A DNA stretch of 64,000 nt, taken from NCBI GenBank assembly GCA_963681965.1, contig OY820579.1:1376001-1440000 (forward strand). Direction: 5' to 3'. The notes under the pieces are model-generated. The model saw only the letters and a program-made list of their open reading frames with translations. It did no database searches and was not told the origin of the DNA. Shown piece by piece: positions 6,600 through 51,510 of the stretch. The stretch comes from a bacterium (GTDB lineage: Bacteria; Electryoneota; JAOADG01). The position numbers and the translations under genes were made by a program. How positions within the stretch are numbered: position 1 is the first letter of the stretch; the number at the start of each line of letters is the position of its first letter.

Positions 6600-7295
6600 A
6601 TGCGCATGATACCTATCGCAGTCTTGTCTGCAACATTCCTGCTGGCAAGTATTGGTTGTGCAAAACAGGAGAAACCAGCAGTGAGTGATACATCGAAAGC
6701 CACACCGGAAGTGGCGCAAACTTCTAAGATTGACAAATCAAAGATCGAAGCTCCGGCAGATCAAATGCCGAAATCCGATGAAGTCGCAATTATCGACGTT
6801 CAGGGATTTGGTCGAATTGTACTTGGGTTCTTCCCTGAGAAGGCACCGAAACATGTCAAGAATTTCATCGATTTGGCGAAGCAGGGCTTCTTCGATGGTA
6901 CGACCTTCCATCGCGTGATTCCCGGCTTCATGATTCAGGGTGGCGATCCTAATAGCAAGGATGATGATCCTAATAACGACGGTATGGGCGGACCGAGCAC
7001 CCGCGTGAATGCCGAATTCACCGATCTGAAGCACCTTCCCGGTACTCTTTCGATGGCGCGCTCGCAGGATCCTAATAGCGCTGGTAGTCAATTCTTTATT
7101 TGCCACAAGGCAGCAGCATTCTTAAACGGTCAATATTCGGTTTTCGGACAGGTATTGGCGGGTATGGATGTTGTAGATAAAATCGCGAATGCACCACGCG
7201 GTGCAGCCGACAATCCTTATGCGATGAACTGCTCGAATCGTCAGAAAATCGCAATGAAAGTGACAATAGCTAAGTGGAGCGAAGTCATTCAGTAA
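6600..7295 (+). CDS. Cyclophilin-type peptidyl-prolyl isomerase, lipoprotein
   Basis: FHRVIPGFMIQGGDP, SMARSQDPNSAGSQFFI; lipobox LASIGC; RBS ggagga before ATG 6600. Confidence 0.92.
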   Translation: MRMIPIAVLSATFLLASIGCAKQEKPAVSDTSKATPEVAQTSKIDKSKIEAPADQMPKSDEVAIIDVQGFGRIVLGFFPEKAPKHVKNFIDLAKQGFFDGTTFHRVIPGFMIQGGDPNSKDDDPNNDGMGGPSTRVNAEFTDLKHLPGTLSMARSQDPNSAGSQFFICHKAAAFLNGQYSVFGQVLAGMDVVDKIANAPRGAADNPYAMNCSNRQKIAMKVTIAKWSEVIQ

Positions 7296-8107
7296 CACCT
7301 GCCGAACGGTCGCTCAGTCGCGCGGAAATTCGCGAACTGACGGCACTGGCAATCAAGAAATATCGGAACGAGCGCGGTCGTACAATTGCCGAAGGGGAGC
7401 AATTGGTGGCGGAAGCGCTCGTTTCGGCTTGGTCTGTACATGAAGTCGTAGCAACCCCACAATTTATTGCTAGTAAAGGGATGATCAAGCTCTTCCCGCT
7501 GATGGCTGAGCGTGAAGTCGCACTACGATCCGTTCCCGAAGAAGTGTTGAAGAAAGTCTCGGAGTTAGCTACATCGCCCGGTGTTCTAGCGACGGTCTCG
7601 CCTCCGGTATGGGGCGACAAACCGTTCCGAACTGGCGTAGTACTCGCGTTGGATCGCATTAGCGATCCGGTCAATCTTGGATCGATCGCTCGAACGGCTT
7701 GTTTCTATGGGATTGAGCGGCTATTATTGTCGGAGGAGTGTGTCGACGTACTCAATCCGCGTGCTTTACGAGCCTCGATGGGCGGTCTGTTTTTTCTTAC
7801 GATTCTGACGACGAAATCGTTGAAAAATGAATTACGAAAATTGCAGCATGACGGAGCCAAAATTGTTGTTGCCGATGCCGTAACCGGAACGGATGTACAA
7901 CTGAATCCATCAGAGCTACCAATGGTTTTGGTGATGGGTAGCGAAGCGCATGGAATTCGACCGGAAATTATTGAAATTGCCGATTACCACTGGCGATTAA
8001 ACCCGATCGGTCGGGATTTGACACTAAATGTCGCGGCTGCGACTGCCATTTTGCTGGATCGATTTTCCCGGATGACTGCTCGGAGTATCCCCAGGGATTT
8101 TTCATGA
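7274..8107 (+). CDS. TrmH/SpoU family RNA methyltransferase (start uncertain)
   Basis: DPVNLGSIARTA, LVMGSEAHG, TLNVAAATAI SPOUT motifs. Confidence 0.88.
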   Translation: MERSHSVTPAERSLSRAEIRELTALAIKKYRNERGRTIAEGEQLVAEALVSAWSVHEVVATPQFIASKGMIKLFPLMAEREVALRSVPEEVLKKVSELATSPGVLATVSPPVWGDKPFRTGVVLALDRISDPVNLGSIARTACFYGIERLLLSEECVDVLNPRALRASMGGLFFLTILTTKSLKNELRKLQHDGAKIVVADAVTGTDVQLNPSELPMVLVMGSEAHGIRPEIIEIADYHWRLNPIGRDLTLNVAAATAILLDRFSRMTARSIPRDFS

Positions 8108-8940
8108 ATGATGCGCCGGATCGTCAGGAAGAAGAGAAAATCCCATACAGTCAATACCCGGAATTGTTTGAATCGACATGGGTGCTTATACTTACTTTGA
8201 TTTGGGGTGAATTGATGATTTGGGGATTGAAACAGCTCCCCATCAATGAACCTTTTTCACTCTGTCTGAGTACGGGTGGTTTGATCTTACCGGCACTAGT
8301 ATGGACGATGCGCAGTCGATTCACACTAAAATCGATTTTTCGGTTGCAATATCCCGGTTTTTATCATTTATTGCTTGCTATCCCATTCAGTATCGGGGTA
8401 TCGATCATTGTAGATGCTGTAGATCGATGGTGGTCCTTGTTGATTCCCCCCGATCCGGAATATGTTGCTGCTTTGTCCCGAAGTGTGACTGGTAATACCG
8501 TATACGAAGTAGTCGCGATTGTGATGGCTGCCGGATTTCTAGCACCACTTTTCGAAGAGATGCTCTTTCGCGGGTTGTTACAGGGAGTGATGGAGATTCG
8601 CACCTCCTTCTATTCCGCGATTCTATGGACAGCCGCAATATTCAGTGTTTTTCACGGTAATTTTTCGCTGCTACTGCCACTGATTCTGCTAGCGATCGTA
8701 TTGGGTGCAATGGTTTGGCGCGTCGATTCGATATTTCCAGCCGTCGTAGCACACAGTGTGAATAATCTCTTGATGCTGTATTCGATGAAGAAGCCGGATG
8801 GAGCGATATTTCCCGGTTATTTGGATGGACATCATGTCGCCCTGATTTGGTTGAGTGTCGCGATAGTATTAGCAGTAATTTCCGGTTATTTGTACTTCCG
8901 CTTTCCCGATGAAAATAGTCTTACGGAGACAACCGAATGA
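8104..8940 (+). CDS. CPBP (Abi/CAAX-II) family intramembrane metalloprotease
   Basis: EEMLFRG, FSVFH and AHSVNN motifs; multiple TM segments. Confidence 0.88.
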   Translation: MNDAPDRQEEEKIPYSQYPELFESTWVLILTLIWGELMIWGLKQLPINEPFSLCLSTGGLILPALVWTMRSRFTLKSIFRLQYPGFYHLLLAIPFSIGVSIIVDAVDRWWSLLIPPDPEYVAALSRSVTGNTVYEVVAIVMAAGFLAPLFEEMLFRGLLQGVMEIRTSFYSAILWTAAIFSVFHGNFSLLLPLILLAIVLGAMVWRVDSIFPAVVAHSVNNLLMLYSMKKPDGAIFPGYLDGHHVALIWLSVAIVLAVISGYLYFRFPDENSLTETTE

Positions 8941-39940: not shown

Positions 39941-40594
39941 ATGAGAGTGGAGTTAATTTCCTTCATTACCGATTGGATCCTGCATCTTGACGTTCACTTA
40001 GCACAGGTGATACAGCAATACGGTAGCTGGACTTACGGAATCTTATTTTGTGTGATCTTCTGCGAAACTGGTTTGGTCGTGATGCCATTTCTACCCGGCG
40101 ATTCGTTGCTTTTCGTCGCTGGTGCCCTAACTGCGAAGAATCCCGATGTATTGAATATCGGTTTTCTGTTTGGGTTACTTTATTTTGCAGCGGTTGCAGG
40201 CGACAACACCAATTACGCCATCGGTCGATTCCTCGGGTTGAAACTGTTTACCAAACCCGATAGCAAATTCTTCCGGAAGGATTATCTTGATCGCACGCAC
40301 TCCTTTTACGAGAAATATGGCAAGAAAACCATCATTCTTGCTCGATTCGTACCGATCGTACGGACCTTTGCGCCCTTCGTCGCCGGTCTTGGGCGAATGA
40401 GCTATCTTACTTTTCTCACGTTCGATTTGCTCGGCGGGGCGCTCTGGATTGGCTCGCTAACTTTTGCGGGTTACTTTTTCGGTAATATCGAATTCATCCA
40501 GAAAAACCTGACCGTCGTTATTTTTTCCATTATCTTTCTTTCGATTCTTCCTGCGATCATTGAAGTTGTTCGCGAAAAATGGAGTAAGAAATGA
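39941..40594 (+). CDS. DedA family membrane protein (start 39941 or GTG 39947)
   Basis: FCETGLVVMPFLPGDSLLF, GDNTNYAIGR, ARFVPIVRTFAPFVAG. Confidence 0.93.
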   Translation: MRVELISFITDWILHLDVHLAQVIQQYGSWTYGILFCVIFCETGLVVMPFLPGDSLLFVAGALTAKNPDVLNIGFLFGLLYFAAVAGDNTNYAIGRFLGLKLFTKPDSKFFRKDYLDRTHSFYEKYGKKTIILARFVPIVRTFAPFVAGLGRMSYLTFLTFDLLGGALWIGSLTFAGYFFGNIEFIQKNLTVVIFSIIFLSILPAIIEVVREKWSKK

Positions 40595-42645
40595 ACCGGA
40601 TATACATCTCACTTCTGTTATTGTTGACATGTAGTTTTCTGGCGATTGCCGCTACGCCGAATCCCCCCGCAGTATCGCATAAGATTGCGTTTACGCTGAA
40701 TCCGACGACTCAAATGCTAACGGGAATCGATACTATTTCCATTCACCACGGCAACCATAAATTCTATCTTGCGAAGAAATGCGATGCCAGCATTGTCGAT
40801 ATCACCGACAAAAAAAACGAGCCGCTGAAACTGGTGACGGCGAATCTGTTGGCGAAAACCGATGCCGAAGAGTGGGAAGCGAATGCGAATGCAATCGAAA
40901 TCAGTGGACCGAAAACAGTAGTTGCGAATTGGAGTGGCGTTTTCAACGATTCTTCCGCCAACGTGCAATTTTCACGCGAACAAGTCGCCGGTGTTCCTGA
41001 AGGGGTTATTGCCAAACAAGGAATTTTTCTATCGACCTCGGCGCTGTTTTATCCGATCGAATTCAATACTGTCCATGAATATACAGTGACGATTTCGACT
41101 CCGAGCGGTTGGACACCCATCACGACCGGGTTACGAACTAAAATCGGTCTTGCTCCGGAAGGTTTTGTCAATTGGTCGTTTGGTGGACCGTGGCAGAACG
41201 AAGGTTTGAGTATTGCTGCCGGTGAGTTTATTGTTCGATCTACCGACACACTCGGCATCTCCATCGAAACCTGTTTCTCGCCTGCACGCGATTCGCTTGC
41301 ACCAACCTACTTAGCTGCGGCGAAAAAGTATATTGCACGTTACTCACGCGAATTTGGAGCTTACCCTTGGCCATCATTTGCCATGGTCGAAGCATTTTTT
41401 CCCGCTGGTTATGGACTTCCGGGATACACTTTCCTCGGATCGGAAGTCATAGCATTGCCGTTTATCGTCACAACTTCGCTCGGTCATGAAGTTTTGCACA
41501 ATTGGTGGGGGAACGGCGTGTTCGTTTCCAGTAGCGGAAATTGGTGTGAGGGTCTGACGACATTTGGCGCCGATTGGGCGTACAAAACCGATCGTGGCGA
41601 GGATGCCGAGTATCGTCGTGGTTTGATCAAAGATTATGCCAGTTATGTCAACAATGGCAACGATTTTCCACTTCGCAAATTTACCTCGCGTTCCAGTGGC
41701 GCTACCCGCGCAGTCGGATACAACAAGTGCGCATTTCTGTTCTATGCATTAAAAAATCGAATCGGTGACGATGCCTTCAATCGCGCGCTACAGCGATTCT
41801 ACGCACAGTACCGGTATCGGTTCGCCGGATGGGACGAATTACGCGAGTGTTTCCAACAGGAAGCGCCGCATGAATCGTTGAAGTATTTCTTCCGTGATTG
41901 GATCGACGAGACTGGTGCGGTTGAGTTGAAGAATTTATCGATGAAGAATGTCGGCAAAACGACCGAGATTTCACTCGCTGTTTCCGGAAAACCATTCCCG
42001 ACATGGATTCCCGCCAAATTAAGCAATGGCGATAGTTCCCGGATCGTCCAGATCGACGGAAGAACCATTCGCAACGGGAAATTGACTTGGAGTAGTGCGA
42101 TCGAATCGACCATTCACAATTGGCAACCGAATGAAGTGACCATCGATCCCTATTATCAAGTCTGGCGTAAACCGGCTCCGGGCGAGATCCCCCCGTCACT
42201 ATCTGATCTGTACGGTGCGAAAAAAGTCGGTTGTTGGATCGAGGGAAATGGCGATTGGCAACTCGATTCTGCGTTGAGAAAATTAGCCGTGTCGCTGTTC
42301 GATACCACCGTCGTCTGGCTGAAAACAACCGAAGAATTTCCCGAGATCCCGATTGTCACACTTCGGAAAGATATATCGAAAACAGCACTCTATCTGCACG
42401 AACCGACACCCGAGCAGAAATTGCTGTTCGGCAAACCGCTCTTTGAAGTGAAAAACGAAGGGAAGCGAATCGTCGGTTTGATCTCTGTTGACAATCTTGC
42501 CGGTGTATCCTACTTGCAGCGCAAGGCACCCCATTACGGGAAATATTCCCGAATCGTCTTTGATGAGACTGGTAAGAACATTATCAAAGATCTGGCTCAA
42601 CCCGGGAAACACGCGCTTCACTACGTATTGCCGCAAGCTAAATAG
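40591..42645 (+). CDS. Secreted M1-family (gluzincin) metallopeptidase
   Basis: Signal peptide; HEVLHNWWGN...WCEGLT (HExxH-x18-E); VGYNK. Confidence 0.85.
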   Translation: MNRIYISLLLLLTCSFLAIAATPNPPAVSHKIAFTLNPTTQMLTGIDTISIHHGNHKFYLAKKCDASIVDITDKKNEPLKLVTANLLAKTDAEEWEANANAIEISGPKTVVANWSGVFNDSSANVQFSREQVAGVPEGVIAKQGIFLSTSALFYPIEFNTVHEYTVTISTPSGWTPITTGLRTKIGLAPEGFVNWSFGGPWQNEGLSIAAGEFIVRSTDTLGISIETCFSPARDSLAPTYLAAAKKYIARYSREFGAYPWPSFAMVEAFFPAGYGLPGYTFLGSEVIALPFIVTTSLGHEVLHNWWGNGVFVSSSGNWCEGLTTFGADWAYKTDRGEDAEYRRGLIKDYASYVNNGNDFPLRKFTSRSSGATRAVGYNKCAFLFYALKNRIGDDAFNRALQRFYAQYRYRFAGWDELRECFQQEAPHESLKYFFRDWIDETGAVELKNLSMKNVGKTTEISLAVSGKPFPTWIPAKLSNGDSSRIVQIDGRTIRNGKLTWSSAIESTIHNWQPNEVTIDPYYQVWRKPAPGEIPPSLSDLYGAKKVGCWIEGNGDWQLDSALRKLAVSLFDTTVVWLKTTEEFPEIPIVTLRKDISKTALYLHEPTPEQKLLFGKPLFEVKNEGKRIVGLISVDNLAGVSYLQRKAPHYGKYSRIVFDETGKNIIKDLAQPGKHALHYVLPQAK

Positions 42646-42670: not shown

Positions 42671-42699
42671 GGGGTGGTCGCAACCACCCCTTTTTTTTT
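42671..42699 (+). terminator. Intrinsic terminator
   Basis: ggggtggt-cgca-accacccc followed by a T9 run. Confidence 0.8.
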
Positions 42700-42838
42700 G
42701 TTTCGAATTGACAATCGTGAAAAATCTTGCAAATTTTCAATTTTCTATTGCACAATCAAAATTAACCCATTATTCTATAGATAGCTTACATGGCACTGCC
42801 GGCATGATTGTTGGTGAAACAAAATCAAATGGGGCAGG

Positions 42839-43084
42839 ATGATGGAAACGCAAATTGAATTTCAGCCGGCACTTCAAGTAGTCGATCTGAATATCTTGAA
42901 AGATGCAGCTCAGCATTTACTGCAACTCGGGTACCCTTCGCAGATTAAACCTTGGGAAGAAGTTACCCCTTCCGAATTGGAAGAATGGATGAATCCTGCG
43001 CAAGGGGGATACCTCCTTTCGCTTCCCGCAGATAATTTTTTCCAAGCGATGAATGAACTGGGTAAAATCTATAAAGCCACCTGA
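42839..43084 (+). CDS. Small hypothetical protein
   Basis: 81-aa ORF with a purine-rich upstream sequence; no recognised motif. Confidence 0.5.
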   Translation: MMETQIEFQPALQVVDLNILKDAAQHLLQLGYPSQIKPWEEVTPSELEEWMNPAQGGYLLSLPADNFFQAMNELGKIYKAT

Positions 43085-43254: not shown

Positions 43255-43896
43255 ATGACTGTCGCACCATTGAAGCGATACCGAATTCCCCACTTCCCAA
43301 CCTATGATTTTTTGCTCGAACATCCCATACTACTGGAGAAGCTACCAGACCGCTGGTGCAACAATAAGCTAGTGATGCTCGCGCTCGGAACACTGTCTTT
43401 TATGATGGGAAGCTGCAAGCCGGATGAACCAAAATGGGAAGGTGGAATTGTTGTACCAATTTTGACTGAAAATGAAGCACAACAGATTATCCGGGAAGAA
43501 GCGTCAACTGCTGGGATCACTTTCATCACCGACTCGCTCACAATACCTAATGTGAGAATTCCCATAAGCTTTATCAGATACTCTCATCCATCGGATTCAG
43601 TTCATCTCACTCCCGAAACCAACTTAACGCTCGACGGTCACGACACATTACGTCAGATCAGCTACGAATTCATATCGGAAACAGATTTATCCCAGTGGAG
43701 AATTCAATCGGATACGTTATACGAAATTTATAATATTAACCGCTCGAAAACTGCTAGGGAGCTTCAGACTGAACTCCGGACGCAGCGACCGGATCTGCAT
43801 GTGGGGGTATTTTCTGAGCAAAATGGCAACCCACAAGATCTCCGCCAACAGGTACGGGATTTCATCTCGTGGCTGCATCAACAAGGAGTTTACTAG
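43255..43896 (+). CDS. Radical-SAM-associated putative lipoprotein, paralog 1
   Basis: Leader MTVAPLKRYRIPHFP...LPDRW, lipobox MGSC (C54), WEGG segment, ends LRQQVRDFISWLHQQGVY. Confidence 0.85.
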   Translation: MTVAPLKRYRIPHFPTYDFLLEHPILLEKLPDRWCNNKLVMLALGTLSFMMGSCKPDEPKWEGGIVVPILTENEAQQIIREEASTAGITFITDSLTIPNVRIPISFIRYSHPSDSVHLTPETNLTLDGHDTLRQISYEFISETDLSQWRIQSDTLYEIYNINRSKTARELQTELRTQRPDLHVGVFSEQNGNPQDLRQQVRDFISWLHQQGVY

Positions 43897-43897
43897 C

Positions 43898-44533
43898 ATG
43901 TTGGTTGAACCACTTCGAAGATACGATACTCCGAAGTATCCAAACTTCGAGGGCACCGTGCAGCATCCGGAAATACTGCAAACAATTCCACACCGGTGGC
44001 GTCACAATAGCTGGGTATTTTTTTCTCTGAGCACGGTTGTTTGGTTCTGCACCGGTTGTCCTTGGGGAGGTGGATTTGCTACACACGGCATACCGCCCTC
44101 TGAAGCTGAGATGTTAGCAATTATCAACAGCGAAGCTCGAACAGCCGGAATTGTATTCAAGGGCGATACGCTAACGTTACCGAATGTGTCGTTACCTCTG
44201 CACTTTTCCACTCCTCATCACACCGATACTCTTTGTCCATCGTCGCCTATCGGTTTGAACATGGATGGATTCGATTCCACACATTCAATCGCCTATGAAT
44301 TCGTCGCATGGGAAGATCTCGACGCGTGGAACCGACTCGTATCGATTGAAGCATATCAATCCCTAATGATGAGGCAAACGGCAGAAGCGCTTCAAACGCA
44401 ATTGCGCGCGGATCATCCCGAATTGAAAATCGGTGTATTCCATGAGCCGAATTATCAGGGATCCGATACTCTTAATATCCGACAGCAAGTACAATCATTT
44501 ATCGCTTGGATCCGGTCACAGGGAGTGATGTAA
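43898..44533 (+). CDS. Radical-SAM-associated putative lipoprotein, paralog 2
   Basis: Start reassigned to ATG 43898 by alignment with paralogs; MLVEPLRRYDTPKYP...IPHRW, CTGC (C54), WGGG, IRQQVQSFIAWIRSQGVM. Confidence 0.85.
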   Translation: MLVEPLRRYDTPKYPNFEGTVQHPEILQTIPHRWRHNSWVFFSLSTVVWFCTGCPWGGGFATHGIPPSEAEMLAIINSEARTAGIVFKGDTLTLPNVSLPLHFSTPHHTDTLCPSSPIGLNMDGFDSTHSIAYEFVAWEDLDAWNRLVSIEAYQSLMMRQTAEALQTQLRADHPELKIGVFHEPNYQGSDTLNIRQQVQSFIAWIRSQGVM

Positions 44534-44535
44534 CG

Positions 44536-45174
44536 ATGTTGATCCAACCGGTACGAAACTACCAAATTCCGAAATATCCCGTCTTCGCGGAAGTGCAATA
44601 CTATCCCGATTTAATGGAGACGATGCCCGCTTGCTGGGGGCATAGTAAATTCGCAATGTCTTCTTTCAGTGCCATAGCGATGTTGGTGTTGAGTGGCTGT
44701 CCCATTTTTTCCCGGACTGCCGGACCACCTTCGATACCACCAGTGATGACCGAATCCGAAGCTGCGCAAATTATCCTGCAAGTTGCCGATTCCGCCGGTG
44801 TTCATTTTAACGGCAGTCAGTTGACGTTGAACAATATTAGCATTCCTTTGCATTTCTATAGCGACACGACCACAACCGATACCCTCCATCATACCGCGAT
44901 CACCAATCTGGTGTTTGATGGTAACGATACAACGCATCACGTAGCATACGAATATATTTCATCGGAAGACTTGTCGATCTGGCGCAATCTGGATACTAGC
45001 AGGATATACCGATCAATCGATGGTGTGAAAACTGCCAGAGATCTTCAAAGTGAACTGAGAGTTCTTCGACCGGATTTACACATTGGTGCGTTTTATCCCT
45101 CCAATTACGAAGACGAATTGCGCCAACAAGTACGGGATTTCATCGCATGGTTGCGAACCGAAGGGGTGATTTGA
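44536..45174 (+). CDS. Radical-SAM-associated putative lipoprotein, paralog 3
   Basis: Start ATG 44536; MLIQPVRNYQIPKYP...MPACW, LSGC (C55), LRQQVRDFIAWLRTEGVI. Confidence 0.85.
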   Translation: MLIQPVRNYQIPKYPVFAEVQYYPDLMETMPACWGHSKFAMSSFSAIAMLVLSGCPIFSRTAGPPSIPPVMTESEAAQIILQVADSAGVHFNGSQLTLNNISIPLHFYSDTTTTDTLHHTAITNLVFDGNDTTHHVAYEYISSEDLSIWRNLDTSRIYRSIDGVKTARDLQSELRVLRPDLHIGAFYPSNYEDELRQQVRDFIAWLRTEGVI

Positions 45175-45176
45175 CA

Positions 45177-45938
45177 ATGCTAATCGAACCGATCAAACGC
45201 TATCCCAAACCCAATTACCCCATCTTCCAGTTTGTGCAGGAACACCCCGAATTGCTCGAGAAATTGCCGAAGCAGTGGTTCAACAATCCCGTGCTGCTAA
45301 GTGCTGCATGTGCTGCCGGAATGCTGATCGGTTGCGATCACGGAACCACCAGTCCCTCGACGATGAGATCCAGTAGTGTTGCTCCGGTCTATGCCCATGG
45401 TGAGGGAAGAGCGATTTGGGGCGGAGTCATTTTCGGTGCGGCGTATAGTTTTTTTACCGAAGCCGAAGCGCGGCGATTAATATTGGATGAATTTACGGCT
45501 GCGGGGTATTCGATTACCGATACGACAAAAGCCATCGAAAATGTGAAAATTCCGGCAACGAGCTATTTCGAAACGTTGGATAGCGTCGTTACGTATTTTC
45601 CGACCACAGTATCGCGATTGCAGCTTGATGGTTACGATTCGACTTTGTCGATTGGTTACGAATTTGTTTCCGATGACGATTTCTATAATTGGCGGAGATC
45701 GGATTCGGTGCTCAGCACAGTCTATGTCGAAAATTTGAAAACGACTGCAGAACGTCTGCGACAGGGATTAATGAAGAAACAGACCAATACACATCTTGGT
45801 GTTTTCTACGATCCACTAACATATTACCTGGGGTATGACGCTGCCGATTCGGTAGTAGCAGCGCAAAAGAATAAAACCGAACTGCAACGCCAAGTTCGAG
45901 ATTTCATCGGGTGGCTGCGGTCACAAGGAGCTTTATAA
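45177..45938 (+). CDS. Radical-SAM-associated putative lipoprotein, paralog 4
   Basis: Start ATG 45177; MLIEPIKRYPKPNYP...LPKQW, LIGC (C53), HGEGRAIWGG, LQRQVRDFIGWLRSQGAL. Confidence 0.85.
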   Translation: MLIEPIKRYPKPNYPIFQFVQEHPELLEKLPKQWFNNPVLLSAACAAGMLIGCDHGTTSPSTMRSSSVAPVYAHGEGRAIWGGVIFGAAYSFFTEAEARRLILDEFTAAGYSITDTTKAIENVKIPATSYFETLDSVVTYFPTTVSRLQLDGYDSTLSIGYEFVSDDDFYNWRRSDSVLSTVYVENLKTTAERLRQGLMKKQTNTHLGVFYDPLTYYLGYDAADSVVAAQKNKTELQRQVRDFIGWLRSQGAL

Positions 45939-45940
45939 TC

Positions 45941-46735
45941 ATGCTAATCGAACCGGTTAAACGTTATGAAACTCCGCAATACCCGGCGTTCGAATATGTG
46001 CAAGAACACCCGGAAATCCTAAAGAAATTACCGAAGCGATGGCACGACCACAAACACGCAATCGCTGCAGTATCGATATTTGCATTAATAGTGGGAATCA
46101 GCCAAAGTAAAAATGTATTCAGCCTAAATGATAACATGACAGATAGTTTAAGATCCAGTTATCGAGATGGAAAATTGTCTTGGGGAGGAGAAGGTTCTAT
46201 GCAGCCTCAATCAAAATTTTTTACTGAAGCGGAAGCGAAATGTATTATCGATGACGAAGCAGCAAAATCGGGAATACAATTTAACTTGGGTACACGCGTT
46301 TTATCGAATGTGGAAGTACCAAAAACTTCGACCTATCTAAACTATCCTTCACAACGACAACTGGGAAATAGGATACGAAATCTTGAACTTGATGGCTTCG
46401 ATTCTGTCAAGAAAATAGGATTTGAATTTATTTCGTTAGACGATTTCAATGCATGGAAAGATTCGAGTAATATTAATGGAAGCACTCGCGGCGAAATCAA
46501 TCTGAAACAAACCGCGCAAGAATTACGAAATGGGTTAGAAAAAAAATCGTTACACATGCATATCGGCGTTTTCTACGATCCGATAGGGTCGGAATATTCT
46601 AAGTACACTCATTTCGCCGATCCTTCAATGAATACTGATAAAATGAACCGGAAATTAAGTCAAGAGACGGAACAAGCACTACGAATCCAAGTCCAAGAAT
46701 TTGTTAAGTGGATGAAAGAGCAAGGAGCGCAATAA
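45941..46735 (+). CDS. Radical-SAM-associated exported protein, paralog 5 (no lipobox Cys)
   Basis: Start ATG 45941; MLIEPVKRYETPQYP...LPKRW, hydrophobic stretch, WGGEG, LRIQVQEFVKWMKEQGAQ. Confidence 0.85.
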   Translation: MLIEPVKRYETPQYPAFEYVQEHPEILKKLPKRWHDHKHAIAAVSIFALIVGISQSKNVFSLNDNMTDSLRSSYRDGKLSWGGEGSMQPQSKFFTEAEAKCIIDDEAAKSGIQFNLGTRVLSNVEVPKTSTYLNYPSQRQLGNRIRNLELDGFDSVKKIGFEFISLDDFNAWKDSSNINGSTRGEINLKQTAQELRNGLEKKSLHMHIGVFYDPIGSEYSKYTHFADPSMNTDKMNRKLSQETEQALRIQVQEFVKWMKEQGAQ

Positions 46736-46738
46736 CCG

Positions 46739-47878
46739 ATGCACCTGACGCTCCACCTGACCGGTCAATGCAATTTTCGCTGCAGCTACTGTTATGCCGA
46801 GAAGAATCCAGTCGATATGAGCTTTGAAACGGCGCAGAAAGCCATTCAGATGTCGCTGCGGATGCTCGAAGAAAAGCAGAGTGATAGTAGTCTGGGCATA
46901 GTTTTCTTCGGTGGCGAACCACTTTTGCGCAAACCGTTGATCCGCGAGATCATGACCTATTGCAAGCGCATCGAGACCGAAACGAAACGCCCCTTCCATT
47001 TCAAAATGACCACCAACGGCATGTTGCTCGACGAAGCATTTCTCACCGATCCGCTCACCTCACAAATCATGATTGCATTGAGTCACGACGGTATCCCGGC
47101 AGCACACGATGCTCACCGCCACGATGTCGGTGGACATCCCACTTCGCAAAAATTGGATCCGGTAATCGATCTACTGCTGAAACATCAACCCTATGCGCTG
47201 GTGATGCAAGTGGTTTCACCGGACACCGTGCCGTATTATGCACAATCGGTTCGCTACCACTATGCGTGCGGTTTCCGGTACCTAATCTATACGCTTGATT
47301 TCAAAGCGGATTGGAATGATAAGTCGTTTAAAGACCTTGCAAAGCAGTATAAGGAGTTGGCAGAGTGGTATGAGACCATGACATTGAAGGAAAAGAAATT
47401 TTATTTCAGCCCGTTCGATAAAAAAATCGCCAGCCATATTTTTCCGGAAGAGTGTAACGGCGAACGTTGCGACTTCGGAAAACGACAAGTCTCGGTCGCT
47501 GCAACCGGAAGGATCTTTCCCTGCATTCAATTTGTCGGCGATGGGAGCGACTCGCGGTTCTGTATCGGCGATGTCGAAACCGGTATCGATCAGAAGCGAA
47601 GCGCTAAACTCTACTTCGAGAATTTCGCCGAGAAAGCATCGTGCTTCGATTGCGCCATCAAAGAGCGCTGCAATCAGTACTGCGGCTGTATCAATCTTCA
47701 TACTACCGGCAAGATCAATACCGTCTCACCATACCTTTGCGCACATGAACGAATCGTCCTGCCGATTGCCGATCGGTTAGCGGAGAAGCTCTATAAAAAA
47801 CGGAGTGCGATGTTTATTCAGAAACAGTACAATCATCTTTACCCGCTACTGTCGCTGGTCGAGGATCGGACACGATAG
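46739..47878 (+). CDS. Radical SAM/SPASM domain protein (peptide/protein maturase-like)
   Basis: CNFRCSYC, FFGGEPLL, TTNG, SHDG; SPASM motifs CDFG...GRIFPC and CFDCAIKERCNQYCGC...C. Confidence 0.93.
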   Translation: MHLTLHLTGQCNFRCSYCYAEKNPVDMSFETAQKAIQMSLRMLEEKQSDSSLGIVFFGGEPLLRKPLIREIMTYCKRIETETKRPFHFKMTTNGMLLDEAFLTDPLTSQIMIALSHDGIPAAHDAHRHDVGGHPTSQKLDPVIDLLLKHQPYALVMQVVSPDTVPYYAQSVRYHYACGFRYLIYTLDFKADWNDKSFKDLAKQYKELAEWYETMTLKEKKFYFSPFDKKIASHIFPEECNGERCDFGKRQVSVAATGRIFPCIQFVGDGSDSRFCIGDVETGIDQKRSAKLYFENFAEKASCFDCAIKERCNQYCGCINLHTTGKINTVSPYLCAHERIVLPIADRLAEKLYKKRSAMFIQKQYNHLYPLLSLVEDRTR

Positions 47879-48156: not shown

Positions 48157-48390
48157 CTACTTCAACAACACGATCTTCTGTGTCTTCGCAAAATCTCCAG
48201 CATTCAACCGCACGAAATACGTTCCGGTGGCCAGCGACTTCCCATCGAACTGGAAGGTGTATTCGCCGGGATCCTGATGGAAGTCTACGAGCTTTGCCAC
48301 TTCTCTTCCAGCAATGTCGTACACCCGCAAATCGACTTTCCTTGTCTTCGCAATCGTATATCGAATCTCGGTTGTAGCGTTGAAGGGATT
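48157..48390 (-). pseudogene. Orphan C-terminal sorting-domain fragment with no start codon
   Basis: Manual translation NPFNATTEIRYTIAKTRKVDLRVYDIAGREVAKLVDFHQDPGEYTFQFDGKSLATGTYFVRLNAGDFAKTQKIVLLK*; homologous to the tails ending at 28167 and 58217. Confidence 0.8.
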
Positions 48391-48399
48391 GGAGTGTGA

Positions 48400-51300
48400 T
48401 TATTCAAATTTGCCGTCTTCGGAATTTTCCATATCGTGGACGATTTTCATCGTCTCGACACTGACGGTACAGACACGCTGCAATAGATCGATTACTTTAT
48501 CTTTGTAATCGGCAAAGCGATAGGTATTGAATAACTCTGCTATGGTTGGGTCGGATGGTTTCTTCTCTTTGTATTGATCGAGAATCCATTCGAGCGCACT
48601 GCGATTGCCAAGTTTGTATTCCCACGCCTCGGCCGGGATTCCGGTGAGCGAAGTCATTTCGTCCAATTCGATCGTACCGTGCTCTTTATCGGCCTTGAGT
48701 TTCACTTTGAGTTTGGGGACATAATCCGTCAACGTTCCCGGCTCGGTAACGGCGGGAAAAGATGTGGTCTGCTTGGGTCGCGAGGGTTGCCGGGGAGCTT
48801 CGACGAGTTGCAACCCGAACGGTGCGGCCGCTTCGAAGCCAATGTGCAGTTCCATCAATTGTTTGCCCCACTGCGACCACAACGAAAAGTCTTTGTAGAA
48901 AGGAATCCGGGGAAAGTCGCATTTCAGATTCTGAGCGTACTTTTTACGATACGCCGGGTTGTGCAACACTGCATAACAGTAGTGGAAAATCTGCTCGCGG
49001 CTGATCGTCTTATCTTTGTAATGCTTCTGGAATTCTTTCAAGCCCCAGTCGGTGAGGTTGTCTATAGGGTTTCCCGCTTCGTCAAATCGGAACAATGGAA
49101 TATTCTGACACCCACCTGGAAGACAATTCAAATCGACATAATATTTACTAGATAAACTTAAGAATTGATTTGCATGAGCAGAACCAGAAATACAAATAAT
49201 TTTGTTTTCAGAAGTCGTATGTCTAATTTTTGACCACTTAAACGTTCTTCCTGTTAAGTATTTATCACAATAAAACATTAAATAAGTAAAAGGTCGATAG
49301 ATACAACCACTAACTTGAGAATGGTTAAATGATATATGGAGTCGTTTCTGACGACATTTGTCAAGCTTTACGTTAAATTTAATTTTTGAGTCAGAAATGT
49401 TAGACATGTTCATCGAAATTTCATATTGTTCAATAAAGTATTTTACTTTGTTTTTTAGTAATTCTGAACTATAGTCATACATCCAATGATCACTTTTCGT
49501 CTCAATTCCTAATGAAAAAGTTTTGAACAGTGCGCATTGCCCTTTTTGTGATTTAACTAACTTGTCAATTAATGGTATTAAATGTTCCCAATCATTGTTC
49601 ACAAGATCAATCCAATGATGGTTCTTATCTGGAGTGATCGCTTGAAAATTGATTTGATGCAATGGATTTGATTTTAAAAATTCAAATTTTTCTTTTCTAG
49701 TTGCTCGTATGTTGCAAGGAAGTGCATAAAAGATGTTACATTTGTCATTTACTTTACATTTTTGTTTTATTAAAAATGCAATAGAAATACCGACTGCTGC
49801 TGATACACCAAAAATTGTATGTTTCTCATTCAAGAAGATACCGTCTAAACCAGATAAATCGTGAATGTTCCCACCTAAGTCGATAAAGTAAGCAGAATCA
49901 AATTCTGTTTGGATGCATTTGCGGAAGCCATTAAAGGCACAACCATGCAAAAATTTATTATTTGTTATGAAACAAATTATTCCACCATCATTAATCCTAT
50001 CTGAAGCCCACCGAAAAAATCTTACGTAAGGGTCATATAACATATATTGTGTTTGTGCAGTCCCATTTTTTACGTAAGTATCTTTTATTCGCTTGTCAAT
50101 TTCAAAATATCTTTTGTTGCTATTTTGATAATTATAGTTTGGTTGTTTCGCGTTATACGGTGGATTCCCAATCACGACCGAGATTTTCTTGTTGTTTTGT
50201 TCGCAAATTCGCTTGGCATTCTCGCTGCTGATTCCAAACAACGTACCCTGTTTCCCTTCGTACCCAAGCGCGGCAGTATTGTCCAGCGTATCGACAAAGC
50301 AGAGATTCGGAAACTCTTCGAAGGCACCCATTTTCTGCTTGTAAGAGTATTCGATATTCAAATTGGCGATGTAATACGGGAGGATGGCAACCTCGTTCGC
50401 CAGCAATTCGTTCTTGTATTTATCGAGCAGATACTGCTTGGGAATGTGCTCGATAATCTCGCAAATGAATGTCCCGGTTCCAGTAGCAGGATCGAGAATT
50501 TCGACATTCTTCGAGGCGAGTGTTTTCCCGAAATGCTTGTGCAGCAGATAATCGGTACTCTCGACCATGAACTTTACAATTTCATTGGGTGTATAGACCA
50601 CGCCCAAGCGGTCGGCCGCTTTCGGGTTGTACACTTTATAGAAATTCTCGTAGAGAACTTTGAGAAATTTCTGTTTTTCGTGGTGGTCGGGAATACCGGA
50701 GGCCGCTTCGTGAATGGTGCCGTAAAAATGCTCGATATTGCCCAGCAGTGTTTTCCGTTCCGGGTAAGTAAACAACTTTTCGATCAGCTCTTCCAACTTG
50801 CGCGCGATATTGTTGTGACGGTGGAAGTCCGGTTCGTCAAAGACTCTATTGAATATATCGGCAGTTAGGATATGCTGAATCATCATCTCGCGGATATCGT
50901 CGGCAGTAATGGCGGGATTGATTTCGGTCTTGCATAAATCGTGGAATTCTTCGAATGCGTCCAAATACGGCTGATTATTTTTGCTCTTGATGTCGATTTG
51001 CACGCGGATGGCCACCAGAATCTTGGGAATATCGGTTTTGAAGATCTCCAGTGCCGCTTCGAATTTTCGTATGATTTCGCGTTTGAATTCGATAAAGGAG
51101 ACAATCAAGCGGTCGAGTTGTGCCGGTTCATGAACATTCGCCCGCCCGACCAATTGACCGTTCTGAAACAGTACGGCACTTTGGCTGTCTTCGAATAAAA
51201 TGTTGGTGAGTGGGTATCCCTTTTTTATTTTTATATCGATCTCTTCGTCTAAACTGTCTTTTTCGTCTTTACTTTCCCAATACCCGATATCCAAACCCCA

Positions 51301-51510
51301 GCTATTTCGCAAAATGCCGTCGGGTTTGACGTTTTTTCCGGTCGTTCCAAGTACAAATACTTCCCGCACTACTCGTAAATTGCGGTCGTCGGCGTAACGA
51401 TTCAATAAATTACAAAAACATCCTTTGATAGTATCTTCATTGGCTGTTTTCGCAAACTTAACAGTTTGATCGTATTCGTTGTAGTATTCTTGGATATAAA
51501 GCTGCGACAT
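48400..51510 (-). CDS. Restriction-modification protein: N-terminal PD-(D/E)xK-like nuclease + N6-adenine MTase + Type ISP-like C-terminal specificity domain (no helicase)
   Basis: KPDG...YWESKD; GVVYTPNEIV; motif I LDPATGTGTF; motif IV IGNPPY; C-terminal YAVLHNPAYR...FPRIP...WEYKLGNRSALEWILDQY. Confidence 0.85.
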   Translation of the reverse strand: MSQLYIQEYYNEYDQTVKFAKTANEDTIKGCFCNLLNRYADDRNLRVVREVFVLGTTGKNVKPDGILRNSWGLDIGYWESKDEKDSLDEEIDIKIKKGYPLTNILFEDSQSAVLFQNGQLVGRANVHEPAQLDRLIVSFIEFKREIIRKFEAALEIFKTDIPKILVAIRVQIDIKSKNNQPYLDAFEEFHDLCKTEINPAITADDIREMMIQHILTADIFNRVFDEPDFHRHNNIARKLEELIEKLFTYPERKTLLGNIEHFYGTIHEAASGIPDHHEKQKFLKVLYENFYKVYNPKAADRLGVVYTPNEIVKFMVESTDYLLHKHFGKTLASKNVEILDPATGTGTFICEIIEHIPKQYLLDKYKNELLANEVAILPYYIANLNIEYSYKQKMGAFEEFPNLCFVDTLDNTAALGYEGKQGTLFGISSENAKRICEQNNKKISVVIGNPPYNAKQPNYNYQNSNKRYFEIDKRIKDTYVKNGTAQTQYMLYDPYVRFFRWASDRINDGGIICFITNNKFLHGCAFNGFRKCIQTEFDSAYFIDLGGNIHDLSGLDGIFLNEKHTIFGVSAAVGISIAFLIKQKCKVNDKCNIFYALPCNIRATRKEKFEFLKSNPLHQINFQAITPDKNHHWIDLVNNDWEHLIPLIDKLVKSQKGQCALFKTFSLGIETKSDHWMYDYSSELLKNKVKYFIEQYEISMNMSNISDSKIKFNVKLDKCRQKRLHISFNHSQVSGCIYRPFTYLMFYCDKYLTGRTFKWSKIRHTTSENKIICISGSAHANQFLSLSSKYYVDLNCLPGGCQNIPLFRFDEAGNPIDNLTDWGLKEFQKHYKDKTISREQIFHYCYAVLHNPAYRKKYAQNLKCDFPRIPFYKDFSLWSQWGKQLMELHIGFEAAAPFGLQLVEAPRQPSRPKQTTSFPAVTEPGTLTDYVPKLKVKLKADKEHGTIELDEMTSLTGIPAEAWEYKLGNRSALEWILDQYKEKKPSDPTIAELFNTYRFADYKDKVIDLLQRVCTVSVETMKIVHDMENSEDGKFE

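Follow-up and report, generated by a model that had tools for sequence, protein, structure and literature searches.

A radical SAM/SPASM enzyme paired with a tagged, exported protein family: the W-x-G segment of an Electryoneota gene array as a probable remnant of a glycine-rich motif

In a bacterium of the Electryoneota (GTDB lineage JAOADG01; NCBI GenBank assembly GCA_963681965.1), a stretch of 64,000 nucleotides from contig OY820579.1 (positions 1,376,001 to 1,440,000, forward strand), hereafter the window, encodes five related proteins with a hydrophobic, export-type stretch, here termed P1 to P5, directly followed by a radical S-adenosylmethionine (SAM)/SPASM enzyme. The locus raises the question of what such an enzyme would do to proteins of this kind, and at which site. 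The original prediction placed the answer in a short linker behind the lipobox, in which most copies carry W-x-G, and proposed this linker as the core peptide for a Trp-directed crosslink or backbone rearrangement. Comparison of the five copies with their wider family leads, on balance, to a different explanation. The WGG segment is probably a lineage-specific, decayed remnant of a conserved Gly-rich and usually Cys-bearing motif, and the exported family and its radical SAM enzyme probably constitute a protein-modification pair, with the Gly-rich loop and its Cys as the likeliest target in typical members.

The W-x-G segment and its family-wide counterpart

P1 to P5 share a common layout, in which a conserved N-terminus of ~37 residues (M-x-x-x-P-x-K-R-Y-x-x-P-x-Y-P ... 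P-x-R-W) precedes a hydrophobic stretch, a linker and a T-E-x-E-A helix that opens the conserved body. The linkers, of 17, 16, 18, 40 and 41 residues, have a mean pairwise identity of 0.25 over aligned pairs and 0.14 over all columns; the corresponding values are 0.46 for the N-terminal tag, which is the best-conserved part of the five proteins, 0.37 / 0.33 for the body and 0.16 for the hydrophobic stretch. The linker is thus length-variable and low in identity, as originally described, but it is not the only strongly divergent region, the hydrophobic stretch being equally so. Nor does it lie just behind a lipobox in every copy, as a lipobox-like Cys follows the hydrophobic stretch in P1 to P4 and is missing from P5. 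The segment sequences had been quoted exactly, including the presence of W-x-G in four copies (WEG in P1; WGG in P2, P4 and P5) and its absence from P3. The four Trp residues share a single alignment column, and this column and the next two align to a family-wide (F/Y)-G-C; the recurrence of W-x-G therefore reflects shared ancestry of a motif rather than independent enrichment. One Gly of the linker stretch is invariant across all five local copies.

A profile of the five copies, run against 1.84 billion representatives (clusters at 50% identity), retrieves 1,701 proteins at E ≤ 1e-3, of which 1,064 reach E ≤ 1e-10 and 208 reach E ≤ 1e-30. The family is visible only by profile search, since a word-based protein search with P3 returned P3 itself as the sole match (1 protein among 84 candidates). 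Pfam and NCBIfam scans of P1 to P5 recognize no family, and those of 14 and 6 more typical members recognize none beyond chance-level matches and an inserted Cu_amine_oxidN1 domain. This insertion, found in 5 of the 14 scanned members (long forms), fits an extracytoplasmic location. A PDB sequence search with the family profile gave nothing below E 0.95. Source databases name the members 'hypothetical protein', a search of the ESM Atlas otherwise returned only the family's own unnamed clusters, and exact cluster look-up yielded no names. The name 'Metalloprotease', attached to one ESM Atlas cluster and one NCBI record, is unsupported by any protease family or motif.

A scan of one genome per species located 79 loci in Armatimonadota, Bacillota, Acidobacteriota, Planctomycetota, Verrucomicrobiota, Bacteroidota, Lentisphaerota, Hydrogenedentota and others, the Bacillota members including Hungatella hathewayi DSM 13479, Pseudobacteroides cellulosolvens and Candidatus Formimonas warabiya. 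This is a large unnamed family without a Pfam or NCBIfam model, distributed over many phyla and present in cultured Hungatella, Pseudobacteroides and Formimonas strains. Counted at the level of open reading frames (ORFs) in 83 loci, and inflated slightly by one split gene, copy number per locus is one in 51 loci, two in 16, three in 11, four in 1, five in 3 and nine in 1. The family is rare in genomes related to that of the window, occurring in 4 of 61 including the window's own; the others are a congener (G001), with one copy, and two genomes with distant short homologs (G005 and G036).

Family proteins measure 210-400 aa and consist of a 35-37-residue N-terminal tag, a hydrophobic export segment, a variable spacer, a Gly-rich motif and a body of ~150 residues. 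Their alignment comprises 294 rows (the 150 best representatives and 144 family ORFs from the loci and the window, two sets that may overlap and both of which contain the window proteins). Cys occupies the lipobox column in 146 of the 294 rows, about half of the members. The bacterial lipobox follows the pattern [LVI][ASTVI][GAS]C at the end of the signal peptide; L-S-G-C in P3 and L-I-G-C in P4 fit this pattern, M-G-S-C in P1 and C-T-G-C in P2 do so loosely, and P5 has no Cys. An extension of 37 residues before the hydrophobic core is unusual in a signal peptide.

The family consensus ahead of the helix reads V-A-P-(I/V/L)-F-x-H-G-(D/E)-G-R-G-(S/A)-(F/Y)-G-C-V-(A/S)-V-N-P-P-V-F-L-S-E-E-E-A. 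Its leading residues are P70 (263 of 294 rows), F72 (247), H74 (234), G75 (249), G77 (249) and G82 (240), position 83 being Cys in 209 rows and Gly in 50; at the start of the helix stand E94 (284) and S/T93 (271). Mean top-residue frequency is 0.60 in the motif block (positions 68-89), 0.63 in the first helix, 0.51 in the tag, 0.37 in the body and 0.18 at positions 55-67. The segment described as hypervariable is so within this genome, but family-wide it belongs to the best-conserved blocks. P4 aligns to the motif residue for residue, its W-G-G corresponding to the family's (F/Y)-G-C, and P1 and P2 retain little beyond W-(E)-G-G. Copies of the Cys type form a tight block, with G82 in 196 of 202 and P89 in 199 of 202, whereas Gly-type copies are relaxed (P89 in 14 of 45). 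No second conserved Cys, a possible disulfide partner, occurs in the mature part in the family alignment.

Composition of the segment was counted in 283 rows, after removal of the window's five proteins and of duplicates. WGG occurs in none of these rows and W.G in 7, as against 159 with [FY]GC and 224 with HG.G. Relative to the body, the segment is rich in Gly (12.8% vs 6.5%), Cys (2.2% vs 0.5%) and His (2.8% vs 1.1%) and poor in Trp (0.3% vs 1.7%). An enrichment of W and G in homologous segments had been put forward as the touchstone of the W-x-G proposal; it holds for Gly and is reversed for Trp. Outside the window, the aromatic position is F in 143 rows, Y in 36, T in 24 and L in 14, and is thus not strictly aromatic. 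Trp appears there in 8 of the 294 rows, 6 of which are the window's own proteins counted twice and the rest two other representatives.

Several loci depart from the typical layout. In two Planctomycetia metagenome-assembled genomes (MAGs; L068, L081), the tag lacks its second half (H-P-E-L-L ... P-x-R-W) and Y-P-T-R-R-E-V-L-A-G directly joins the hydrophobic stretch, an arrangement that we take to resemble a twin-arginine signal; both have Thr at the aromatic position of the motif. A far-diverged pair from the window's phylum (L007 and L008, in G036 and G005; enzyme 37% identity) has the enzyme upstream of the short homolog, the reverse of the order in the main family, and this homolog has the tag, L-Q-G-C and a Gly/Pro-rich linker without the family motif. 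Degenerate and canonical Cys-type copies are mixed in arrays of 9, 5 and 3 copies (L037, from a Fimbriimonadaceae MAG, L017 and L016). The canonical copies of L037 and L017 lie at the enzyme-proximal end of the array, with one short degenerate copy between them and the enzyme in L037. The window array is arranged likewise, its most motif-like copies, P4 and P5, being the last two.

A dedicated enzyme and a leader-like tag

The family is almost always found beside a dedicated radical SAM/SPASM enzyme, a point in favor of the original prediction. In 73 of 82 fetched loci, an ortholog (called at E ≤ 1e-20; 44-61% identity) immediately follows the family gene or genes on the same strand, and at least one Cys-type copy is present in 69 of 74 loci that bear the enzyme. 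Among the nine loci without an adjoining enzyme, four lie at contig ends (L022, L034, L068, L085), three have no copy in the fetched flank (L059, L077, L079), one of these (L079) having an intact copy elsewhere in the same genome, and L086 has a different, fused architecture. In the ninth, from a Chthoniobacteraceae MAG (L083, positions 7275-8300), the radical SAM frame behind three family copies ends after ~35 codons and other ORFs come next; an intact ortholog is present elsewhere in that genome (L088). Clustering of all ORFs in the 83 loci yields no third conserved gene, be it a transporter, a protease or a RiPP recognition element (RRE) protein, the next clusters after the two genes being, in the printed examples that were checked, alternative-frame ORFs over them.

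The enzyme is a member of the radical SAM/SPASM superfamily, with a Pfam Radical_SAM score of 46.8 bits (cut-off 29.5). Eleven Cys residues, namely C11, C15 and C18 (CX3CX2C), C244, C262, C302, C305, C311, C315, C317 and C334, are invariant in 48 of 48 aligned orthologs; SPASM domains are recognized by a seven-Cys pattern. The best NCBIfam match is to PapB (NF047865), at 209 bits and E 1e-61 over residues 3-328 of 379 and under the cut-off of 340. It is followed by the nif11-type (129 bits, cut-off 519), QhpD-type (125), CXXX-repeat (124) and SCIFF maturase (122) families. The sulfatase maturase model TIGR03942 gives 75.3 bits (cut-off 349.45), and the match to the solved enzyme has E ~1e-11. 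The original prediction took cyclophane synthases and spliceases as its guide to the chemistry, a comparison that finds no footing in these scores. The cyclophane and splicease families fall far under their cut-offs (among the cyclophane formers, YhhB 77/445, AmcB 56/425, GrrM/OscB 50/310 and FxsB 48/370 bits), and the nearest relatives are the thioether formers PapB and CteB. CteB provides the nearest solved structure (PDB 5WGG; E 1.8e-25), aligned from CteB residue 99 onward and up to residue 338 of the enzyme. An RRE is absent, the enzyme beginning at profile positions 79-99 of RRE-bearing models with ~10 residues before the first cluster Cys. Additionally, a conserved C-terminal tail (~338-378) and the extra invariant C317 lie outside the PapB and CteB models. 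Judged by its nearest relatives in sequence, the enzyme appears to be an RRE-less member of the CteB/PapB thioether-forming clade.

How an enzyme without an RRE might recognize its partner is suggested by a model of the complex, built from the enzyme (48-sequence alignment), P4 residues 1-110 (93 of 150 listed representatives, keeping rows with one matched stretch that begins at or near residue 1), SAM and three clusters. The interface score ipSAE (interaction prediction score from aligned errors) is 0.84, 0.84 and 0.86 in three runs, compared with 0.01 for the best of 3 controls. Of 157 solved complexes, 116 reach the mark applied to this score, as do 2 of 215 mismatched pairs; this calibration is only rough here, given that the alignments were own and unpaired and that ligands rode along. 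The runs share at least 70% of their contacts, and the predicted local distance difference test (pLDDT) score of the partner is at least 51. As solved structures include no relative of the partner, the model is unlikely to reproduce a known complex. Confident contacts involve P4 residues 1-9, 12-17, 20, 26-34 and 37-47, that is, the tag and the hydrophobic stretch, and enzyme residues 192-194, 218, 233-236, 301-307 and 329-378. The model suggests that the N-terminal stretch is a leader-like tag ahead of the export signal, gripped by the C-terminal tail of the enzyme instead of by an RRE.

The body of the partner may have a restriction-endonuclease-like fold. Its best VIA-align matches are endonuclease-like, with 3hrl at Z 7.7 (root-mean-square deviation 3.3, 89 aligned), 3r3p at Z 7.2, Bax1 at Z 6.6, VRR_NUC at Z 6.4 and Hjc at Z 5.3, all in the 'common' range of the tool. 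These matches are too weak to name a function, and Foldseek found no PDB match at E ≤ 0.001. The conserved D ... E-F-V-S of the body has no Lys at the canonical PD-(D/E)xK place.

Loss of the motif Cys and the target of the enzyme

All five local copies lack the family Cys, P4 and P5 keeping a Cys-less motif and P1 to P3 having lost most of it. Both P4 and P5 have GGA at this position, a codon that would need two changes to encode Cys, and sequencing error is thus ruled out as the cause of the loss. Over the complete genome, a hidden Markov model (HMM) of the tag finds P1 to P5 only (E ≤ 2.4e-10; next match 0.057), and an HMM of the Cys-type motif matches P4 as the sole ORF (E 6.1e-5). The complete genome thus has no Cys-type substrate elsewhere, and it encodes a single enzyme of this family. 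In a tree of the radical SAM enzymes, rooted at the midpoint only, the window and its congener are sisters (100/97) within starred clades of 8 and 19 rows, in which the other loci all have a Cys-type copy. Because the Cys-less loci are nested among Cys-type ones, parsimony indicates that the Cys was lost secondarily. The single copy of the congener has neither the His nor the Cys of the motif and no W at the WGG position. As all five window copies have lost the Cys and their motif has decayed, the local WGG is better read as a relic than as a Trp-directed core.

The partner enzymes of the two genomes, which are 62% identical, also depart from their orthologs. At 102 columns conserved in at least 93% of sequences, the window enzyme shows 7 departures and that of the congener 6, against a median of 2 and a maximum of 9 in the other 44 (the aligned orthologs without the window, L006, L007 and L008). 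Four departures are shared (residues 174, 185, 318 and 321), and L318 and Q321 lie right behind C315-x-C317. As these constitute one evolutionary event, they give only a hint of co-adaptation.

According to the explanation favored here, the C-terminal tail of the enzyme would hold the N-terminal tag, acting as a leader before the export signal, in the cytoplasm, and the enzyme would modify the still-unfolded protein. The product would then be exported, with tag and signal either cleaved off or kept as an anchor. In typical members, the likeliest target would be the Gly-rich loop with its single conserved Cys, and the product would carry a thioether-type link or some other change centred on this Cys. 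In the window genome, if the intact enzyme still acts on P1 to P5, it would do so at a non-Cys position. The original idea of a core peptide just behind the export signal is retained in part: the conserved Gly/His/Cys-rich motif at this place is a reasonable target candidate in typical members, but the local motif has decayed, and docking is confident for residues 1-47 rather than 68-83.

Several observations weigh against this explanation, beyond the rough calibration of the complex score. The target residue and the chemistry are drawn solely by analogy with the enzyme's relatives. P4 residues 68-83 are absent from the confident contacts, on which the model is silent rather than negative. An AlphaFold2 model of P4 (mean pLDDT 86.9) packs residues 71-80 on the body at pLDDT 95, which would make the loop a structural part of the mature protein instead of a free core peptide. 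Sulfatases bury their formylglycine motif in the mature protein in a similar manner. The enzyme is intact, with all 11 invariant Cys, in both the window genome and its congener, neither of which has a Cys-type copy, which suggests that its job does not strictly need that Cys. Finally, median tag-HMM scores are 50.5 bits for Cys-type copies, 53.9 for Gly-type, 50.0 for other and 36.7 for motif-absent copies, and the retention of a full-strength tag by degenerate copies fits a target outside the motif just as well.

Such an outside target has an appreciable, though clearly minor, chance of being the right answer. The modification might fall on the start of the (S/T)-E-x-E-A helix, elsewhere in the body or on the tag, leaving the loop a functional or structural role, for example in His/Cys metal or ligand binding. 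It would account for the retention of tag and enzyme where the loop has decayed (in this genome and its congener) or is lacking (L007/L008), for the tag in degenerate copies of other arrays, for the greater conservation of E94 and S/T93 compared with the Cys, and for the modelled packing of the loop. It is less easily reconciled with the retention of a Cys-type copy in nearly all enzyme-bearing loci and with the much tighter constraint on the Cys-type than on the Gly-type block, which suggests a Cys-linked function. A modified tag, moreover, would be lost wherever signal peptidase removes it. In addition, the closest relatives of the enzyme all work through a Cys of their substrate, according to passages of PMC9413430 and PMC13692751.

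Loss of the Cys could also have left the pair vestigial in this lineage, the enzyme no longer modifying P1 to P5, and tag and enzyme persisting only because too little time has passed or because the enzyme has another role. The lack of any other tag-bearing or Cys-type protein in the complete genome and the raised number of enzyme departures are in line with this proposal, which is nevertheless improbable. The enzyme retains all 11 invariant Cys as well as its other invariant residues, no region of the five paralogs is better conserved than the tag, on whose HMM each scores 42-56 bits, and the five-fold expansion with its short spacers resembles a working operon. Additionally, the congener's enzyme has diverged to 62% identity with neither gene broken, which points to long-term purifying selection. 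Least credible of all is the Trp-directed crosslink or backbone rearrangement of the original prediction, with P3 as its natural negative control. In its favor stand the single Trp column of four local copies, the Gly invariant in all five and the homology of the stretch to a family-wide motif. That homology, however, brings no Trp with it: the residue is confined to this genome and two other representatives, is missing from the congener and is depleted in the segment, and WGG is not found in any row outside the window. A three-residue cyclophane requires a side-chain carbon at its third residue, which here is Gly, and the cyclophane and nif11-type families score far short of their cut-offs.

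The gene array, its borders and related systems

The six genes form a tightly packed plus-strand cassette with intergenic spacers of 1-3 nt (Table 1). P2 to P5 are 33-40% identical to P1, confirming them as tandem paralogs. A terminator-like hairpin would close the upstream M1-peptidase-like gene and set the 5' limit of the cassette; its other border is formed by a convergent restriction-modification gene. The 81-aa ORF between the hairpin and P1 matches no Pfam or NCBIfam family, and it is not counted as part of the cassette because no counterpart of at least 70 aa is listed upstream of the cassette of the congener. The protein of the convergent gene matches Type ISP coupler, N6 methylase/Eco57I and Type ISP C-terminal specificity domains. 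The coupler match begins at residue 157 with no nuclease or helicase part before it, and the protein may be a Type ISP relative of truncated or methylase-only form. A stand-alone 57-aa ORF with a type IX secretion system (T9SS) C-terminal sorting domain is probably the remnant of a larger secreted protein and would fit a host from the FCB group.

Table 1. Positions in the window of the P1-P5 cassette and its neighbours
Feature	Position	Strand	Length	Content	Tag HMM (bits)
M1-peptidase-like gene	40591-42645	+	684 aa	N-terminal hydrophobic signal; Peptidase_M1 24.5 bits, just under cut-off 27.7; separated from cassette by terminator	
Intrinsic-terminator-like hairpin and T-run	42671-42700	+		8-pair stem, 6 G-C pairs	
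ORF	42839-43084	+	81 aa	between terminator and P1	
P1	43255-43896	+	213 aa	tag residues 1-37 (43255-43365); lipobox-like M-G-S-C ending at C54; linker W-E-G-G at 43435-43446; rest of family motif missing (class 'motif absent')	52.3
P2	43898-44533	+	211 aa	tag 43898-44008; C-T-G-C then P-W-G-G-G; WGG at 44063-44071; family motif truncated	49.9
P3	44536-45174	+	212 aa	tag 44536-44646; L-S-G-C then P-I-F-S-R-T-A-G-P-P (44701-44742); only P-x-F start (P-I-F) of family motif remains; no W	41.7
P4	45177-45938	+	253 aa	tag 45177-45287; L-I-G-C; motif V-A-P-V-Y-A-H-G-E-G-R-A-I-W-G-G at 45378-45425, fullest local copy of family motif; Gly (codon GGA) at family's Cys position	
P5	45941-46735	+	264 aa	tag 45941-46051; no Cys behind hydrophobic stretch; partial motif S-Y-R-D-G-K-L-S-W-G-G, second half of family motif kept; WGG at 46181-46189, last Gly GGA	55.9
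Radical SAM/SPASM gene	46739-47878	+	379 aa	directly behind P5	
T9SS-domain ORF	48157-48330	-	57 aa	Por_Secre_tail 28.9 bits (cut-off 27)	
Type ISP-related gene	48400-51510	-	1036 aa	convergent with cassette	

The closest named and solved relatives of the enzyme are PapB, which acts on PapA (freyrasin ranthipeptide, NF047865), and CteB, the SCIFF thioether maturase (5WGG), with which it shares CX3CX2C and the full set of SPASM Cys. Typical partners in the present family resemble PapA in having a conserved Cys near conserved acidic residues. The enzyme differs from PapB in its score, well below the cut-off, from CteB in the missing RRE, and from both in C317 and the conserved tail. The substrates differ as well: in place of a short Cys-rich peptide with repeated C-x3-D, the partner here is exported, measures 210-400 aa and has one Cys or, in the case of P1 to P5, no motif Cys at all. 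PapB substrates carry Cys-x3-Asp/Glu motifs according to passages of PMC9413430 and PMC10739248. No such motif is found here: P1 to P5 share no conserved Cys behind the export segment, and the family consensus has a single Cys in G-C-V-A-V-N-P-P.

The anaerobic sulfatase maturase (TIGR03942; PDB 4K36-4K39) offers a working analogy, as it is likewise an RRE-less radical SAM/SPASM enzyme whose substrate is an entire exported protein, modified while still in the cytoplasm. In sulfatases, the target motif follows a short way after the signal peptide and is later enclosed in the folded domain. Unlike sulfatases, the partner here lacks a C/S-x-P/A-x-R motif (its consensus being C-V-A-V-N-P-P), and sulfatases have no dedicated tag before the signal peptide. 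CrpC and CrpA of Methanococcus voltae, compared by description only, also pair a SPASM radical SAM enzyme with an adjacent, protein-sized substrate. Passages of PMC13692751 describe thioether links installed by CrpC on protein-sized CrpA, along with two differences from the present pair: CrpC has an RRE, and CrpA is Cys-rich and archaeal. The DAG-RiPPs (DybA/DybH) share cytoplasmic modification followed by the Sec/lipoprotein pathway via a lipobox signal, and passages of PMC13056109 include protein-sized substrates. Their enzyme is, in contrast, a multinuclear non-haem iron oxidase and their modified motif C-terminal, and no conserved tag before the signal peptide appears in these passages; PMC13056109 nowhere uses 'radical SAM', 'rSAM' or 'SPASM'. 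A full-text literature search found no description of the enzyme-substrate pair reported here.

The system is best described as a widespread variant of radical-SAM protein maturation, for which the Trp idea should be dropped and attention given to the family motif and the tag. To our knowledge, radical SAM/SPASM enzymes that act on whole proteins are few, namely sulfatase maturase, QhpD and CrpC (2026). The pair adds a large family to this group, with a leader-like tag before the export signal and an enzyme without an RRE. It also offers a defined tag, a candidate loop with a single Cys, cultured sources and natural Cys-less variants as controls. A more far-reaching picture can be drawn, although we regard it as doubtful: a leader placed before a Sec, lipoprotein or possibly Tat (twin-arginine translocation) signal might recruit the RRE-less enzyme via its C-terminal tail for a new modification, a crosslink or a protein-derived cofactor, in the A-P-x-F-x-H-G-x-G-R-G-x-F-G-C loop of an exported endonuclease-fold protein. 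If this were true, the loop modification would be comparable in logic to formylglycine in sulfatases, and the Cys-less arrays of this genome would represent a natural experiment revealing a second, Cys-independent activity.

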